From Escherichia phage HY01: 64,000 nt of DNA. Each line of letters starts with the position of its first letter. The first letter of the stretch is position 1. The stretch lies in sequence record NC_027349.1, one strand, 5' to 3'. A program made the translations under genes and the position numbers. The notes below the pieces were generated by a model. It made no database searches. It saw only the letters and a list, made by a program, of their open reading frames with translations, and was not told where the DNA came from. Shown here in pieces: positions 18,057 to 40,281 of this stretch.

Positions 18057-18084
18057 TTTGTGTTCCTCCGTAGTTGATAGTTGT

Positions 18085-18114
18085 ATAGTACCACAGAGGA
18101 ACAGTCTTGTAAAC
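18085..18114 (-). promoter_or_regulatory. T4-type early promoter (GTTTAC -35, TACTAT -10) followed by conserved leader ACAACTATCAACTAC
   Basis: Minus-strand GTTTAC 18114-18109, TACTAT 18090-18085. Confidence 0.55.
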
Positions 18115-19501: not shown

Positions 19502-19526
19502 ATCTGTATCAGTAGTTGATAGTTGT

Positions 19527-19556
19527 ATAGTACCATAAAGCTTTATGCTTGTAAAC
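19527..19556 (-). promoter_or_regulatory. T4-type early promoter (GTTTAC / TACTAT)
   Basis: The 32-mer 19504-19536 is identical to 35343-35374. Confidence 0.55.
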
Positions 19557-30089: not shown

Positions 30090-30563
30090 TTATTTGAATG
30101 ATTTAACGTACTGAATAGAACCTTTACTATTTACAAAGGCAATTTTACCATTTTTATTGTACATAGTAGCAGTACGCTGATAACCATAAGTTTGTTTACC
30201 AGATTGATAACCAACTAATGCGAAATTATCTTCGCCCATTTTATTCTGTTTAGCGCGGATGCGTTCATGACCGTGTGCCATAAGAACCTTAGCATCACCA
30301 GTTGAAATTGATCTACGAGTTTTTTCATCTTCAACTGTATTAACAAAGTCGTCAAATGAATCAAATTTAGCATGGGATTTATTATACAGTTTTCCATCTA
30401 CTGCATAATTATATCCCTGTACATCCATCTCAACTTCTGTACCATCATCCAATACAGCAGTGATTTTTTGACCTTTTTTAAATTTCAAAAGATCAGTAAA
30501 AGATTCAGCAATAATTTGAGAATTAATAGCTGCTTCAGTGATAAATTCTTGATATGTTTTCAT
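30090..30563 (-). CDS. Internal-protein-like capsid-targeted protein (157 aa)
   Basis: N-terminal capsid-targeting sequence MKTYQEFITEAAINSQIIAE with prohead-protease-type L/I-x-E sites. Confidence 0.65.
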   Translation of the reverse strand: MKTYQEFITEAAINSQIIAESFTDLLKFKKGQKITAVLDDGTEVEMDVQGYNYAVDGKLYNKSHAKFDSFDDFVNTVEDEKTRRSISTGDAKVLMAHGHERIRAKQNKMGEDNFALVGYQSGKQTYGYQRTATMYNKNGKIAFVNSKGSIQYVKSFK

Positions 30564-30572
30564 ATGTTTCCT

Positions 30573-30989
30573 TTAAATGTAAATATTTTTGCCGTAATAC
30601 TTGTACCAGTGTGGCTTCATTAAAATTTTTTTATCGAGTCGTTGTTGACTCAATTTAATAGCTGATTTGCATGGATTATAATCATTTTTCCATTCTGCTG
30701 GAATATCGCTGATGTCAGGAACTTCAGTATCTTTTATACTAAACCCACGTTTTAAGCATTCCATTATAATGTCTGATTGACGCTTTCGCAAAAATTCTAA
30801 CTTGTCGTAAAAGAACGTAACATGACCAGAACCTAAAATAAACTCGGAAGATATTTTAAAATCTTTAACCCGCTTACCATTTGCCACGTGTTTACGAACT
30901 ATACCAAAAACGCGTGGCAATTCACGGTATTCTGCGATTAAATGTTGATCAGCAAGTTCAGATACTAAAGTCAAATTAATACGAGTCAT
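30573..30989 (-). CDS. denV: Endonuclease V (pyrimidine-dimer DNA glycosylase)
   Basis: 138 aa; [17 protein letters not shown]...WYKYYGK matches T4 endo V. Confidence 0.93.
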
Positions 30990-31048: not shown

Positions 31049-31579
<531 letters not shown>

Positions 31580-32035
31580 TTAAAAGAGGCTGTTCATTAT
31601 TCGGTAAAGTGAAGGACCCATCACATATTGCCACTGGGTACGAGGAATAAGAGCAAAAGCGTCCATCTCTGGAATCATAATGCCATCTTTATTTTCAAAA
31701 TAAGACTCACAATGGCAATTTCTAAACATCTCATGCTCTACTGGAATCGTATAATAAAATAACTGTAAGTCTTTATTACTAGAATATTTAAATACACCTA
31801 GGTCTTCTAGAAGGTCTGGATTATAATTGCTAAAACCAGTCTCTTCTAAACATTCTCTTCGTGCTGCATCTAGTGCGTTTAAATCAGAATTTTCTACGCG
31901 GCCCTTTGGGATATCCCAGCGATGTGCCATCATTCCAGGCTTACGAGAACCAGTAACCCGACCCATAAATAAATCTTTATCTTCTGTCATAAAGATAATA
32001 CCAGCCGATAATGTTTTCATTTTAATTTCCTGCAT
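31580..32035 (-). CDS. nudE: Nudix hydrolase NudE
   Basis: 151 aa; Nudix box GRVENSDLNALDAARRECLEETGF. Confidence 0.85.
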   Translation of the reverse strand: MQEIKMKTLSAGIIFMTEDKDLFMGRVTGSRKPGMMAHRWDIPKGRVENSDLNALDAARRECLEETGFSNYNPDLLEDLGVFKYSSNKDLQLFYYTIPVEHEMFRNCHCESYFENKDGIMIPEMDAFALIPRTQWQYVMGPSLYRIMNSLF

Positions 32036-32505
32036 TCAGTGATAAAGTTATTTAAATTTTGAGTATATTTCTTTTCATCAAAAATCTTTTGTTGTCTGCG
32101 TAGCCGCCATGGCATTTCAATGAACGTGTACCATATCCCAGATAATATTGCTGCTGTAAAAATATTAACAAGTATGGTTAAAAGAATCCAATCTCCTATT
32201 CTGTCCATTGGATTTTTTATAAAAAAGTAAAATACGAATGATGTCACAGGAAGACTAATAATATACCACAGAATCATAATCTTATCTGTGAACCAATCAG
32301 CGTTCGTTAACTTAGCGCGACCATTATAAATACACACGAATTTATCATCTGTTGCAGTAGATGGCTTAACTGGTTGATATCCCATTCTAAACTCCCTAAT
32401 CAACAAATTTTTCATATCTTCGGAACAGCCATTCCAGTCAACTCTATCAACTGAAATGCCATCATCCCCATCATCTAAATCATACCAGCGAGTTTTTAAA
32501 ATCAT
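32017..32505 (-). CDS. Membrane protein (162 aa) with C-terminal F-I-x-E-C-R-K motif
   Basis: Two hydrophobic helices; C-terminus NNFITECRKLK. Confidence 0.55.
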   Translation of the reverse strand: MILKTRWYDLDDGDDGISVDRVDWNGCSEDMKNLLIREFRMGYQPVKPSTATDDKFVCIYNGRAKLTNADWFTDKIMILWYIISLPVTSFVFYFFIKNPMDRIGDWILLTILVNIFTAAILSGIWYTFIEMPWRLRRQQKIFDEKKYTQNLNNFITECRKLK

Positions 32506-34487: not shown

Positions 34488-35003
34488 TTATATCATGCTA
34501 TTTAAGAGATGTAAACTATTTTTAATTTTACAAATTCGTTCAGCTTCTTCAACAGCGGCGATAATGCTTTTAGCTATAGGAGTACTAATACTAGTAGCTT
34601 TTACACTTAACACGATTTCTTTATCTTTACCAGGCCAACCCCACGATTTTTCACCGTGAGTGCCTTTAATTACAGCAGACACCTCAAGTGAGCATCCATT
34701 ATCATATGTTTTTACATTGACAACCCAAGGTTCACTTTTCTCAATCGGTTTATCCCAGTAAATATTAAGAATACGTGGGACATCAAATTTGGCAGGACAA
34801 ATCTTAACCGTAAGACCTTCGCTTTCTAGCCAATTAATAAGAGGGCGTTCATACAGGCGACGATGTGGGCTTGGGATTCGACAAGCCTTATGTCCGTTGC
34901 TTGCGGCTTCACTAAGCTGTTCTAATACCTGCTTTTGCATTATTGATAAGATACCATCAAAAGATTTTTCGGAAGTTTCATTCAGTTCGGTATAAAGAGA
35001 CAT
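34488..35003 (-). CDS. Hypothetical protein (171 aa)
   Basis: ORF track. Confidence 0.55.
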   Translation of the reverse strand: MSLYTELNETSEKSFDGILSIMQKQVLEQLSEAASNGHKACRIPSPHRRLYERPLINWLESEGLTVKICPAKFDVPRILNIYWDKPIEKSEPWVVNVKTYDNGCSLEVSAVIKGTHGEKSWGWPGKDKEIVLSVKATSISTPIAKSIIAAVEEAERICKIKNSLHLLNSMI

Positions 35004-35058: not shown

Positions 35059-35334
35059 TTATTTCATATTATTAAAATATTCTTCTGCGATTTCGTCGTT
35101 ATCATGGTAAACTTTAGAAGACAGTTTAACATAACCTTCAGCAGTGAACATGTTAATCACAACCTTTACAGTATACCACTGACCGTCTTCATTACCCATT
35201 ACTGCGTAAGTTTCAAACATCGGATGGTCAGGACCGATAACTTTAATATCATTCACTGTACGACCGAAATCTTCTGAAACGCATTTCATAAAGAAGTTGA
35301 ACAGTTCGCCGTAATTATCCATTTCATTCTCCAA
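35059..35334 (-). CDS. Hypothetical protein (91 aa)
   Basis: ORF track; preceded by consensus early promoter. Confidence 0.5.
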   Translation of the reverse strand: MENEMDNYGELFNFFMKCVSEDFGRTVNDIKVIGPDHPMFETYAVMGNEDGQWYTVKVVINMFTAEGYVKLSSKVYHDNDEIAEEYFNNMK

Positions 35335-35395: not shown

Positions 35396-35530
35396 AGTTT
35401 TGTGAAAAATTTTTTAAAAAGTTTTAGGGAATTCTAGGGTGGGAAGGGGCAATTAAAGGATAGGATAATATATTATAAAGGGTAGAAACTAAATGGTGCC
35501 TAGAGAGGTCCAGAAAGGTCTAGATACCAA

Positions 35531-35560
35531 AAAGCCCCAACCTTTTGGTCGGGGCTAAAA
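35531..35560 (-). terminator. Rho-independent terminator hairpin (GCCCCGACC-AAAA-GGTTGGGGC) plus U-run
   Basis: Near-identical copy of the hairpin at 36090-36117; 3' of the ip-like gene. Confidence 0.55.
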
Positions 35561-35562
35561 TG

Positions 35563-36036
35563 TTATTTGATTTGTTTAGCAGACCAAATGCGGTCTTTAA
35601 TAATTTTTTGGATGTCTTCAACATACTCAAGAGAGTGAGCATGTGGATTATCTTTGAAACTATAAGCGCGGGCTAACTTTTGGCCTTCGGTTTTGATTAC
35701 TAAAAGCTCTTTAAGGATAGCTTCATATTTAGCGATAATTCCTTTAACGATATTTTTTTCTTGTGCAGCTTTAGGATCTGCTTTAGGAGCAGGTTTACCT
35801 GAAGCCTTTGCAAAAGCAGCGCCAGTAGCAACTAAACTTTTCCAGGCCATACTAACTGCATTTCCCGTAAATCCTTCTGCTTTCATGTCGCGAGCAAACT
35901 GGAATCGTGATTCGTCAGAAGCATCTTTATAGGAATATTTACCCGCTGCAATGGCTGCTTTTGCGACAGCTTGAATTTCGGTGCTAGATGCTTCATTTAA
36001 CACCGCTTCATTTAAAAATTGAGCATATGATTTCAT
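35563..36036 (-). CDS. Internal-protein-like capsid-targeted protein (157 aa)
   Basis: N-terminal MKSYAQFLNEAVLNEASSTE with L-x-E protease-type sites, resembling IP capsid-targeting sequences. Confidence 0.6.
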   Translation of the reverse strand: MKSYAQFLNEAVLNEASSTEIQAVAKAAIAAGKYSYKDASDESRFQFARDMKAEGFTGNAVSMAWKSLVATGAAFAKASGKPAPKADPKAAQEKNIVKGIIAKYEAILKELLVIKTEGQKLARAYSFKDNPHAHSLEYVEDIQKIIKDRIWSAKQIK

Positions 36037-36076
36037 CTTATTTCCTGTTTTAATTCGTGGATTTAATATACTACTA

Positions 36077-36084
36077 TATTTATA
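36077..36084 (-). promoter_or_regulatory. Late-promoter box TATAAATA upstream of the ip-like gene
   Basis: Plus-strand tatttata at 36077-36084, about 40 nt upstream of the ATG at 36036. Confidence 0.4.
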
Positions 36085-36089
36085 CTAAA

Positions 36090-36117
36090 AAGCCCCAACC
36101 TTTCGGTCGGGGCTAAG
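36090..36117 (-). terminator. Rho-independent terminator hairpin (GCCCCGACC-GAAA-GGTTGGGGC) plus U5
   Basis: Strong GC stem followed by TTTTT on the minus strand; ends the small-RNA/tRNA transcription unit. Confidence 0.55.
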
Positions 36118-36122
36118 CCTTG

Positions 36123-36420
36123 CGGCAACCTTGTCGGGGTTCCACCTGCTAAGGCAAGTGTTTGTACGAAACGCCGGGATTCGAACCCGGTTATTAAGCA
36201 GTTGACGCTACTCAATATTTTTAAAAGGCCATATCTCGACCATATCCGAACGTTCCGTCAAAAACGCTACTCGGCTTACGGCAAAGATATTTCCTCGAAT
36301 CGATAATTCGGTGCGCCGTTTCTGTTGTGATAGTAAAGAATCAGAACACAGTAAAACTGTGGGAGAAACTATACTCCAGGGAACATCAGTCCGACGACTT
36401 ACCGGTAGCGACCCGGTTTC
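36123..36420 (-). ncRNA. Putative small stable RNA(s) with tRNA-like acceptor/T-arm (resembling T4 species 1/2 RNAs)
   Basis: No credible ORF. Minus-strand sequence has a canonical T-arm CCGGGTTCGAATCCCGG flanked by a 7-bp acceptor-like stem (CGGAACG/CGTTTCG), but the internal region is too long for a canonical tRNA. Confidence 0.35.
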
Positions 36421-36771
36421 TTAGTATTCTTTTAAAGCATCAACCTGTTCACGACGTTTACGCCATAAATCAATTACTTCATACGCAGATTCAGCATTTC
36501 GAATTGGACGGCATTTATATAAAGACTTATGATTTTGATATTGTGTAGATAACGGAATTTTATCTAAAAGGTCTTTACGTTCAAAATATTCGTAACCATC
36601 TAAACCAAATGAACGATTTTTGAGAAATTGCCAATGACCATATTCGTTTTCGACATAAACATAATCTGCATGCTGATAAAGTAAATTAATTACACGTTCA
36701 GAAATAACAGTGTCATTATGATTAAAATAGAATGTTAAATCATGAACTACTAAATAAACATTACCTTTCAT
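36421..36771 (-). CDS. Hypothetical protein (116 aa) embedded in the tRNA/small-RNA region
   Basis: ORF track. Confidence 0.5.
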   Translation of the reverse strand: MKGNVYLVVHDLTFYFNHNDTVISERVINLLYQHADYVYVENEYGHWQFLKNRSFGLDGYEYFERKDLLDKIPLSTQYQNHKSLYKCRPIRNAESAYEVIDLWRKRREQVDALKEY

Positions 36772-36787: not shown

Positions 36788-36863
36788 TGGTCGAGGCAGT
36801 AGGGATCGAACCTACGACCTAGGACTTAGAAGGTCCTTGCTCTTCCTTCTGAGCTATGCCTCG
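36788..36863 (-). tRNA. tRNA-Arg (anticodon UCU)
   Basis: Manual fold of reverse complement: 7-bp acceptor, anticodon loop CUUCUAA, T-loop GGTTCGATCC, encoded CCA. Confidence 0.8.
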
Positions 36864-36867
36864 GATT

Positions 36868-36942
36868 TGGCGGACGTGATAGGATTCGAACCTATAACCA
36901 ATCGCTTAACAGGCGATCGCTCTGCCATTGAGCTACACATCC
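36868..36942 (-). tRNA. tRNA-Asn (anticodon GUU)
   Basis: Manual fold: acceptor GGATGTG/CACGTCC, anticodon stem ATCGC/GCGAT, loop CUGUUAA, T-loop TTCGAAT, CCA. Confidence 0.75.
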
Positions 36943-36946
36943 AAAT

Positions 36947-37033
36947 TGGTGGGGAGTGATGGAGTCGAACCACCCGAGTCGCAATGACAATGGATTTACA
37001 GTCCACACCGCTACCTCTACGGAATAACTCCCC
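36947..37033 (-). tRNA. tRNA-Tyr (anticodon GUA), long variable arm
   Basis: Manual fold: acceptor GGGGAGT/ACTCCCC, anticodon loop CUGUAAA, long variable arm, T-loop TTCGACT, CCA. Confidence 0.7.
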
Positions 37034-37042
37034 AAATTAATT

Positions 37043-37117
37043 TGGTGGCCCTGGGTGGAATTGAACCACCATCTGGCGATTATGAGTCGCTTGCTTGAAC
37101 CTTCCAGCTACAGGGCC
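37043..37117 (-). tRNA. tRNA with anticodon CAU (Ile-lysidine or Met)
   Basis: Manual fold: acceptor GGCCCTG/CAGGGCC, anticodon loop CUCAUAA, CCA; T4 tRNA-Ile also carries a CAU-derived anticodon. Confidence 0.7.
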
Positions 37118-37118
37118 T

Positions 37119-37195
37119 TGGTGCTGATTGACGGAATCGAACCGCCGACCTTCTCATTACAAGTGAGTTGCTCTACCTACTGAGCTAAATCAGCA
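37119..37195 (-). tRNA. tRNA-Thr (anticodon UGU)
   Basis: Manual fold: anticodon loop CUUGUAA, T-loop GGTTCGATTCC, CCA. Confidence 0.75.
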
Positions 37196-37199
37196 AAAC

Positions 37200-37289
37200 T
37201 GGCGGAGGCGATAGGATTCGAACCTATGAGTCGCCGGAGCGACTGCCGGTTTTCAAGACCGGTGCATTAAACCACTCTGCCACGCCTCC
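37200..37289 (-). tRNA. tRNA-Ser (anticodon UGA), long variable arm
   Basis: Manual fold: acceptor GGAGGCG/CGCCTCC, anticodon loop CUUGAAA, long variable arm, CCA. Confidence 0.75.
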
Positions 37290-37295
37290 AAATAT

Positions 37296-37946
37296 TTATA
37301 TATTGTTAATTTGATTTAGAATTCTTTTTGCTTGAGTATGACTTACGCCAATATGCTTAGCATATTTAGATAATTCACCACGCTTAGAAAAATCATATAA
37401 TTTAGAAATTTCTATTCTTCTTTTTCTTTCATCCGCAGAAACTTTTGCTTCGTTTGCTTTTGCTATTTTACGTTTAGCTTCTTGAGAATGAGTTTTACCA
37501 GCAAAGCCATTCTTCATTAATCCATTTGAAGACCATCCTTTTAATTTTCCGTTAGAATGTGCCTTTTTAACACCCAATGAAATTAATTCGCGTTGCTGAT
37601 CTGTCATAGGATAATTATTTATATGGTCCCATCCACCTTCACCTCCAAGTTTTAAATTATACACATCTGGTCTATTTAAAAACTCTTCTGTGACAATATT
37701 TTTCTCGGCTTCAAGCATAGATTCTTTATCATCAAAATACTCTAATATTTCTTTAGAAAAATTTTCTATACCATATTTATCTTGGGCTCTTTTTAATAAT
37801 TTACCAGAACCCATATATCCATCATCTAAATTTTCGGTAGAATGCACACCAATATAAATTTTATTATTAATTTTATTTGTTATTTTATAAAGATAAAAAT
37901 GCATATCAGTCCCTAATAAAGAACTGAGCGTCTCACGACGAGTCAT
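37296..37946 (-). CDS. segB: GIY-YIG homing endonuclease SegB-like
   Basis: 216 aa; GIY-YIG module YLYKITNKINNKIYIGVHS...GYMGSG; embedded in the tRNA cluster, as reported for T4 segB. Confidence 0.8.
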   Translation of the reverse strand: MTRRETLSSLLGTDMHFYLYKITNKINNKIYIGVHSTENLDDGYMGSGKLLKRAQDKYGIENFSKEILEYFDDKESMLEAEKNIVTEEFLNRPDVYNLKLGGEGGWDHINNYPMTDQQRELISLGVKKAHSNGKLKGWSSNGLMKNGFAGKTHSQEAKRKIAKANEAKVSADERKRRIEISKLYDFSKRGELSKYAKHIGVSHTQAKRILNQINNI

Positions 37947-37949
37947 AAA

Positions 37950-38024
<75 letters not shown>

Positions 38025-38029
38025 AAATT

Positions 38030-38118
38030 TGGTGCGAGAAGTGGGACTCGAACCCACAAGGAAATCATTCCGCAGCATTTTAAGTGCTGTGCCTTTACCA
38101 ATTTGACCATTCTCGCGC
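38030..38118 (-). tRNA. tRNA-Leu (anticodon UAA), long variable arm
   Basis: Manual fold: anticodon stem CAGCA/TGCTG, loop CUUAAAA, long variable arm, CCA. Confidence 0.75.
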
Positions 38119-38190
38119 TGGGAATAAAGGACTTGAACCTTTGCATCCTGGAATCAAAATCCAGTGCCTTACCAACTTGGCTAATTCCCA
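38119..38190 (-). tRNA. tRNA-Gln (anticodon UUG); 3' CCA not encoded, directly abuts tRNA-Leu
   Basis: Manual fold: acceptor TGGGAAT/ATTCCCA, anticodon stem CTGGA/TCCAG, loop UUUUGAU; matches the T4 Gln-Leu dimeric precursor arrangement. Confidence 0.75.
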
Positions 38191-39148: not shown

Positions 39149-39176
39149 TTTATTCTCCTCGGTAGTTGATAGGGTA

Positions 39177-39206
39177 ATAGTATCACTACTAAAACCCTGT
39201 GTAAAC
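39177..39206 (-). promoter_or_regulatory. T4-type early promoter (GTTTAC / TACTAT)
   Basis: Minus-strand GTTTAC 39206-39201, TACTAT 39182-39177, conserved leader and upstream element. Confidence 0.5.
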
Positions 39207-39224
39207 AACTTTGTGAAATATTTA

Positions 39225-39512
39225 TTACAAAAGATTTTTAGCAATAATCTTGAGATGTGCCGCAGAAATGTGTTTAGCTTTAAACAACGCAGTTTCTTCA
39301 GCAGGAGAGATAATGATTGTAGCACCATCCTTTTTAGCAGACCACCCATCACCTAGGTAAACAGTACCTTTGATTTCTTCGCCATCAACCAAGCTAATCA
39401 TTGGTTTACCTTCTCGTCCTTTATTTGCTTTAATAACTTCAGAAGTAAGAGTAGCTTCGGTAATGGTAGAAACCGGGGTAGTTGTAGAAGTAAACTCTTT
39501 GAAAGTTTTCAT
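39225..39512 (-). CDS. ipI: Internal protein I-like capsid-targeted protein
   Basis: 95 aa (length of T4 IPI precursor); N-terminal capsid-targeting sequence MKTFKEFTSTTTPVSTITEATLTSE with L/I-x-E sites; position upstream of 57B. Confidence 0.7.
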   Translation of the reverse strand: MKTFKEFTSTTTPVSTITEATLTSEVIKANKGREGKPMISLVDGEEIKGTVYLGDGWSAKKDGATIIISPAEETALFKAKHISAAHLKIIAKNLL

Positions 39513-39542
39513 TTTATTTTCCTAATTAATTTTGATGAGATA

Positions 39543-39572
39543 ATAGTATCACTACCTCATCAGCATGTAAAC
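39543..39572 (-). promoter_or_regulatory. T4-type early promoter upstream of ipI
   Basis: Minus-strand GTTTAC 39572-39567, TACTAT 39548-39543. Confidence 0.5.
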
Positions 39573-39584
39573 AACTTTGTGAAA

Positions 39585-40281
<697 letters not shown>

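Follow-up and report, generated by a model that had tools for sequence, protein, structure and literature searches.

A hairpin-bordered gene cassette encoding a candidate internal protein in the e.8–rnaC interval of T4-like phages

Introduction

Between the stable-RNA gene rnaC and gene e.8, where phage T4 has an interval of 241 bp with a single hairpin and no open reading frame (ORF), Escherichia phage HY01 carries a gene for a small protein enclosed by two nearly identical hairpins. What kind of gene this is, how it came to occupy this place and what its product may do are the questions considered here for a stretch of 64,000 nucleotides of the HY01 genome (NC_027349.1), referred to below as the window. 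An earlier note, made from the letters of this stretch, had described the gene as one for an internal-protein-like product, and had taken the repeats on its two sides as a sign of cassette exchange by recombination.

Of the effectors of a phage, internal proteins (IPs) arrive in the host first. Those of T4, Ip1, Ip2 and Ip3, are all specific inhibitors of type IV restriction enzymes of the GmrSD family, each acting on a different GmrSD variant (PMC12373910); the view of IPs as anti-restriction factors, also put forward in the earlier note, is the published one. The proteins of "the two Ip loci" are expected by the same authors to inhibit GmrSD likewise (PMC12373910). IPIII is needed on ECOR17 (PMC9391042), and Bas37_0260, a protein of the ipI locus, blocks the type IV systems of E. 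coli K-12 (bioRxiv 10.1101/2025.11.20.689424). [quoted passage not shown] (1994, EMBO J 13:4181), as presented in PMC12373910 and PMC9026906, scrambled sets of ip genes share the leader only and differ between phages in number and identity, which is attributed to recombinational shuffling. Recombination at regulatory stem-loops, in turn, shuffles ORFans (PMC2839356). Variable ip genes with a common leader, their shuffling, the action of IPs against type IV restriction and stem-loops as recombination joints are all established.

The cassette and its genomic setting

In this region of the window every gene lies on the minus strand. In the sense of transcription they follow one another as gene 1, 57A, 57B, ipI, trna.4–.2, the tRNA cluster, rnaD and rnaC, and then the gene for a protein of 157 aa, e.8 to e.2, nudE, e, denV, an ip gene and vs.8. 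The order in the T4 reference is 57B, ipI, trna.4, ..., the tRNAs, rnaD, rnaC, e.8, ..., e, ipIII, ipII, denV and vs.8; as the earlier note had it, ipII and ipIII stand between denV and e in T4, and denV and e are adjacent here. The slot holding the 157-aa gene is bordered upstream by a homologue of rnaC (species 1 stable RNA; 36164–36302, minus strand) and downstream by one of e.8 (35059–35322, minus strand). Over the 851 bases around the gene the sequence is that of Escherichia phage PEC04 (KR233165, Tequatrovirus hy01), with 100% identity; most of these bases are also matched in over 440 records of T4-like phages.

The gene itself, PEC04_0002, extends from 36036 down to 35563 on the minus strand. 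A Shine-Dalgarno sequence, AGGAA (36042–36046, minus strand), can be read 5 nt before the ATG. As had been claimed, the gene has a late-promoter box of its own, the T4-type TATAAATA at 36077–36084 (minus strand), which follows directly on the proximal hairpin and precedes the ATG by 41 nt. The position of this box is shared by most related loci; as a sequence match only, TATAAATA occurs 16 times in the window against 11 expected, which is no overall enrichment.

The gene is indeed bracketed by two near-identical GC-rich hairpins. The proximal one, AGCCCCGACC GAAA GGUUGGGGCU with a U-tail (36091–36114, minus strand), stands some 50 nt beyond the 3' end of rnaC, and the distal one, AGCCCCGACC AAAA GGUUGGGGCU with a U-tail (35533–35556, minus strand), lies before the e.8 promoter region; read on the minus strand, both have the form AGCCCCGACC-AAAA/GAAA-GGTTGGGGCU followed by UUUU. 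The folding energy of each is about −20 kcal/mol, a value reached by none of the shuffled sequences, and the two are the top terminator-like sites within 29–41 kb. They form the core of a 35-nt direct repeat (repeat finder, family D4), whose left copy is at 35524–35558 and whose right copy, consisting of the hairpin and a T/A tail, is at 36082–36116, with 33 of 35 positions identical (94%) and a spacing of 558 nt. In the whole window the hairpin pattern has these two sites only, against 0.00 expected. The 38-mer around the hairpin was found at 1136 places in 690 phage records, one or two per genome. Because of this low copy number, in the window as well as across the records, the hairpin is considered a locus-specific element, and the idea that it is a generic terminator, of a kind standing at most gene ends in related genomes, was discarded.

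The stretch 35524–36116 thus reads as a self-contained late-gene cassette, composed of hairpin, TATAAATA, Shine-Dalgarno sequence, 157-aa ORF and hairpin, in the e.8–rnaC intergenic slot. Within it, the proximal hairpin would end the stable-RNA (tRNA/rnaC) transcript, the late promoter would restart transcription late in infection, and the distal hairpin would end the cassette transcript, shielding the e.8 promoter region.

The slot in related phages

Comparison of the hairpins across related phages, which the earlier note had suggested, revealed four states of the slot: empty, with the 157-aa gene only, with a 187-aa gene only, and with both. In T4 and T2 there is one hairpin and the gene is absent; this T4-type empty junction is intact in 78 phage records, that of T2 among them. 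In PEC04 the slot holds a hairpin, the 157-aa gene and a hairpin, and the e.8–rnaC interval of PEC04-type phages measures 799 bp. IME340 has a hairpin, the 187-aa gene and a different hairpin, and ECML-134 combines the two arrangements into hairpin, 157-aa gene, hairpin, 187-aa leader-bearing gene (MKTYAEFLTEA...) and different hairpin. The box of the 187-aa paralogue is the near-consensus AATAAATA only. Of the phage records, 510 contain the 157-aa gene, nearly complete in 466 cases, and 165 contain the 187-aa gene.

The junctions between these states are all located exactly at the hairpin. In an alignment of six copies of it with their flanks, the sequence on the upstream side belonged to the rnaC flank or to the 3' end of the 157-aa gene; downstream there followed the e.8 flank or the head of the 157-aa or the 187-aa cassette, and all six had in common only the hairpin with its tail (about 35 nt). 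The proposal that the flanking repeats reflect cassette exchange is thereby strengthened, the hairpins being the exact borders of a cassette that some relatives have, others lack and others again have together with a paralogue.

In more distant T4-like contigs (L008–L013) the slot contains one or two of four gene types, namely the 157-aa gene in a variant form of 154–157 aa, the 187-aa gene, a gene for a leader-bearing protein of 205 aa that has a separate TATAAATA, and a leaderless gene for a 184-aa membrane protein. The last of these, a predicted membrane protein of phrog_2143 (unknown function) without a capsid-targeting leader, was seen in L010 (2136–2690), L011, L012 and L013, so that ip-type genes do not have the slot to themselves.

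Broken copies of the 157-aa gene also occur. In vB_EcoM-G28 (L002, 2845–3138) it is frameshifted and annotated as 97 aa, and in AUBRB02 and PsgM02F the match to it is in two pieces with 88% coverage. Such copies are consistent with a dispensable gene, and presence varies among close relatives, in which empty slots, intact genes and frameshifted ones are all encountered.

Gain and loss of the cassette

Since every junction falls exactly at the hairpin, gain and loss of the cassette by recombination at this element is well supported. The hairpin would serve as a crossover site of homologous recombination; a crossover between two direct copies would delete the gene and may release a circle made of one hairpin and the gene. 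Such a circle could insert again where a genome has a lone hairpin, in the manner proposed for the PeSL mini-circles (PMC2839356). One hairpin in the empty slot and two in the occupied one is the pattern expected of a single crossover with such a hairpin-plus-gene circle. A homology of 35 nt is short for recombination, which counts against a crossover at the hairpin.

The arrangement recalls the PeSL cassettes of phages RB49 and phi1 (Arbiol et al. 2010, PMC2839356), in which, as here, a non-essential ORF stands between copies of a regulatory element with a terminator stem-loop, only one copy is present in a related phage that lacks the ORF, and both gain and loss are explained by recombination between the flanking elements. 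The promoter of a PeSL, however, is of the sigma-70 early type and lies inside the repeat, whereas the cassette described here has a late TATAAATA box outside the repeat; the listing of promoter and terminator sites contained no sigma-70-like site at the cassette promoter. Further differences are that PeSLs share about 100 bp of homology and form a dispersed family, in contrast to the roughly 35 nt (hairpin and tail) of a locus-specific hairpin present once or twice per genome. The element would accordingly be described as PeSL-like in behaviour but lacking one defining feature, as its apparent promoter is late and external to the repeat. With the morons of lambdoid phages, which are promoter-gene-terminator units, the cassette has in common that it is an autonomous transcription unit between two genes of the conserved backbone and that its benefit to the phage is probably limited to some hosts. 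Unlike morons, it has its regulatory element in two copies, one on each side, at which the recombination joint lies, and its expression would be late and lytic rather than from a prophage.

The 157-aa protein and its family

By profile comparison the 157-aa protein belongs, over residues 1–157, to phrog_2280, a family of "unknown function" (E = 4e-60); the other leader-bearing products of the slot, of 187 and 205 aa, are members too (E = 1e-53 and 6e-60, respectively). In pairwise comparison the 157-aa and 205-aa proteins match with E = 4e-9 and the 205-aa and 187-aa proteins with E = 2e-4, and the three appear to be distant paralogues. Neither the 157-aa protein nor the family profile has a match in Pfam, NCBIfam or the PDB sequences. 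Among 1.84 billion representative proteins, searched with a profile, there were 13 relatives only, all small and phage-like, with no cellular protein among them, and about 500 phage records hold a member of phrog_2280. The clusters to which the 157-, 187- and 205-aa proteins belong are named "hypothetical", "uncharacterized" or similar, except for one odd automated label, and none of these names contains "internal protein".

An AF2 model (pLDDT 75) depicts a four-helix N-terminal region and, after a linker (PAPKADPK) that is disordered, a long helical hairpin at the C-terminus; structure searches with the protein gave nothing informative. The two parts differ in their evolution. In codon comparisons with divergent relatives the C-terminal half (73 codons) has 4–6 amino-acid changes and 20–25 synonymous-only codons, and the N-terminal half (about 80 codons) has 21–29 amino-acid changes and 21–28 synonymous-only codons, so that change at the protein level is about 5 times greater in the N-terminal domain at equal synonymous divergence. 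This pattern indicates that the gene is truly coding. The C-terminal part is strongly constrained and the N-terminal part is fast-evolving, and the rapid change of the latter fits an arms-race interface. Two plus-strand ORFs that overlap the gene (35545–35676 and 35693–35932) were set aside because it is the minus-strand frame that shows purifying selection.

The capsid-targeting leader

The first 15 codons (35992–36036, minus strand) encode a leader of the capsid-targeting type, MKSYAQFLNE/AVLNE/A, in which the slashes mark two (L)-x-E sites that fit the motif of the prohead protease gp21; the motif LNE/A is read at residues 8–10 and again at 13–15, and cleavage there is predicted. Mutational work on IPIII has assigned targeting to the aromatic position 4 of the capsid-targeting sequence (CTS) and to F7, and processing to I/L8 and E10 (PMC9026906). 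By these criteria the leader, with Y4, F7, L8 and E10, matches four of the four mapped positions, in agreement with the T4-type leader that the earlier note had recognised. It is kept in the paralogues and in distant relatives that are otherwise 27–44% identical: all seven relatives examined, taken from both homologue searches, have a start of the type M-x-x-(Y/F)-x-x-F-(L/V)-x-E or a close variant of it, one of them with extra N-terminal residues.

A scan for the leader motif in all six frames of the window returned three genes, at 35563–36036, 30090–30563 and 39225–39512, the last two of which had already been proposed to be capsid-targeted, making three in all. A relaxed six-frame scan found the motif at the starts of these ip-type genes and of one 51-aa antisense ORF, and nowhere else. 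Aligned with known IPs, the 157-aa protein shares the leader alone. Alignment and Pfam searches found no homology of the mature part to Ip1 (PF11634), Ip4 (DUF7412), IPII or IPIII, and the PHROG families are also separate, 2280 for the 157-aa protein and 4363, 3155 and 2667 for the known IPs. A recent copying of the ipII or ipIII leader into the 157-aa gene was considered and rejected, as the leader codons differ.

From these sequence features the 157-aa protein is likely to be an internal protein, packaged in the capsid and injected. The leader MKSYAQFLNE would direct it into the prohead core, gp21 would remove the leader after E10 and/or E15, and the basic mature protein, which would have 142–147 aa, a mass of about 15.5–16 kDa and a pI of about 9.5, would be injected together with the DNA. 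The literature searched, the supplements of Silas et al. included, contained no virion proteomics for a carrier phage and no published mention of the leader variants as such; MKTYQEF was met only in an unrelated paper on a T4 vaccine platform.

Possible function

Taken as a whole, the observations are best explained by a late-gene cassette exchanged at the hairpin, the product of which would be packaged, trimmed by gp21, injected and directed against a host defence; we regard this explanation as probable. Against it count the lack of similarity to Ip1–4 outside the leader, the number of TATAAATA boxes in the window, which is no higher than chance would give, and the imperfect box of the 187-aa paralogue. 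The anti-defence role of the 157-aa protein is plausible by analogy with Ip1–3. The fast-evolving N-terminal domain would neutralise a first-line defence of the host, its target most likely being a modification-dependent (type IV, GmrSD-like) restriction enzyme, and the conserved C-terminal helical hairpin would have a common role such as oligomerisation or the binding of DNA or of the core.

Other readings of the locus account for some of the same facts. If the hairpins were two ordinary intrinsic terminators of independent origin, and the gene a vertically inherited late gene without cassette behaviour, their resemblance to canonical rho-independent terminators and their positions after rnaC and after the 157-aa gene would be just as expected. 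Yet the 33/35 identity extends to bases of the tail and flank that are dispensable for folding, there is no further copy in 64 kb and no more than one or two per genome across 690 genomes, and the breakpoints of the four presence/absence/combination states coincide with the hairpin, so that this reading, already contradicted by the data, is scarcely credible. The product might instead be a late protein that remains unpackaged in the cytoplasm, such as a regulator or a helper in assembly, with a leader resemblance that is non-functional. Positions 3, 5 and 6 are S, A and Q where the IPII/III leader has T, Q and E, and the codons are unlike those of ipII, ipIII and ip4, as this would predict; all the determinants mapped in PMC9026906 (Y4, F7, L8 and E10) are nevertheless present, and in a family whose N-terminal region is otherwise variable they persist to identities as low as about 30%; the motif is restricted window-wide to the three ip-type starts and one 51-aa antisense ORF. 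A protein that stays in the cytoplasm is for these reasons very unlikely.

Another possibility accepts packaging by way of the leader but sees in the product a bulk internal protein that neutralises the charge of the DNA or aids packaging or ejection, with no specific inhibition. It draws support from the basic, Lys-rich nature of the mature form with its Pro/Ala/Lys-rich linker, from the strong conservation of the C-terminal helical hairpin, and from the contacts that lysines of T4 internal proteins make with packaged DNA (PMC3012670). A bulk role is less easily reconciled with a gene that is dispensable, being missing in T4 and T2 and frameshifted in vB_EcoM-G28, or with the roughly fivefold faster, arms-race-like protein change of the N-terminal domain at equal synonymous divergence, and the T4 IPs of known function are all specific inhibitors (PMC12373910). 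We consider it unlikely, and retain the packaged and injected anti-defence protein as the preferred explanation.

Relation to known internal proteins

The 157-aa protein resembles T4-type IPs in its N-terminal leader MK(T/S)Y-x-(E/Q)-F-(I/L)-x-E with a predicted cleavage site after it, in being small, basic and preceded by a putative late-promoter box, in being non-essential with a presence that varies between close relatives, and in lying within the 10-kb segment of the genome that also contains the known ip loci. It differs from them in forming the separate family phrog_2280, which has no Pfam match and whose similarity to them ends at the leader, and in fold, IPI* being compact with a β-sheet (PMC3012670) and the 157-aa protein being modelled as all-helical with two domains. 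The locus, too, is a different one: the literature speaks of two Ip loci (PMC12373910), and those of Repoila et al. (1994), as far as the accounts of that work go, are ipI and ipII/ipIII, whereas the gene described here occupies a third, e.8–rnaC. At the T-even IP loci the block of homology is the shared leader and 5' region (about 50 nt between ip4 and T4 ipII), and here it is the terminator hairpin.

What is new is the assignment of the family as an IP candidate and the third IP locus, e.8–rnaC. In the literature searched, phrog_2280 was not found as an IP candidate nor e.8–rnaC as an ip locus, and Petrov et al. (2010) do not discuss IPs; the locus may already have been sampled by Repoila et al. 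(1994). Tentatively, and with somewhat less assurance than the explanation of the cassette itself, it may be suggested that the proteins of phrog_2280 are packaged in the capsid and injected, forming a family so far unrecognised as such, that e.8–rnaC is a third IP locus of Tequatrovirus and related genera in which the 157-, 187- and 205-aa paralogues assort combinatorially by means of the hairpin joint, and that their N-terminal domains each disarm a different host defence, possibly outside the GmrSD variants inhibited by Ip1–3.

Carried by about 500 T4-like phages, recorded as "hypothetical" and absent from T4 and T2, the family offers a ready set of candidates for orphan defence variants. 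Its leader-bearing members are also candidates for explaining host-range differences among therapeutic Tequatrovirus phages, and the e.8–rnaC slot of T4 is a natural empty site for the cassette. The four clean states of the slot provide a compact natural example of a transcription terminator acting as a homology patch for the gain and loss of cassettes. If the protein is packaged and injected as predicted, the known class of counter-defence genes of phages gains with this cassette one more member and a third location.

Other ip genes and variable features of the window

The statement that the window has three IP genes in places different from those of T4 holds for the gene in the e.8–rnaC slot, which is empty in T4, but not for ipI, which is at its T4 locus. 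The gene at 30090–30563 (minus strand), directly after denV and without flanking hairpins, does encode an internal protein, as had been supposed, but not a new one: it is the gene for the internal head protein Ip4/IpIV (DUF7412/phrog_3155), a known family with names from several sources. It starts 9 nt after denV. About 50 nt at its 5' end, comprising the leader region and the first CTS codons (30564–30600 junction), are identical to the 5' region of T4 ipII, and the sequence that follows ip4 is the one found directly after denV in T4. The joint falls within the final codons of denV, the product of which consequently ends in ...YYGKNIYI here and in ...YYGKAIYA in T4. Expression of ip4 probably depends on two late promoters upstream of e (31557–31577).

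The ipI gene (PF11634; 39225–39512, minus strand), located between 57B and trna.4 as in T4, encodes a protein with one residue different from that of T4. It is bracketed by a 54-nt direct repeat (39166–39219 and 39532–39585, 80% identical, spacing 366), each copy of which contains an early-promoter-like site, TTTACA-17-TACTAT, with a TG extension. Together with the repeat around the 157-aa gene, two of the six families of local direct repeats in the 64-kb window flank ip genes. A 48-nt direct repeat (18067–18114 and 19509–19556, 81% identical) brackets two other genes, of 104 and 326 aa, and is likewise early-promoter-like, with TTTACAAG ... TACTATAC on the minus strand.

Several differences from T4 were noted in the tRNA region. 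A 116-aa ORF, PEC04_0001 (phrog_3355, unknown function; 36421–36771, minus strand), is present between rnaD and tRNA-Arg, which are adjacent in T4. The set and order of tRNA genes at 36788–38190 (minus strand) are unlike those of T4, with tRNA-Asn and tRNA-Tyr present and tRNA-Pro absent, and a gene for a GIY-YIG homing endonuclease (37296–37946) lies between tRNA-Ser and tRNA-Gly, whereas segB of T4 adjoins tRNA-Arg. The stretch of the backbone with e.2 and e.7 is likewise variable: the e.2 homologue (32017–32505) encodes 162 aa as against 102 aa in the T4 annotation, and the e.7 homologue (34488–35003) encodes 171 aa as against 111 aa, the G28 genome having only a 58-aa ORF at e.7.
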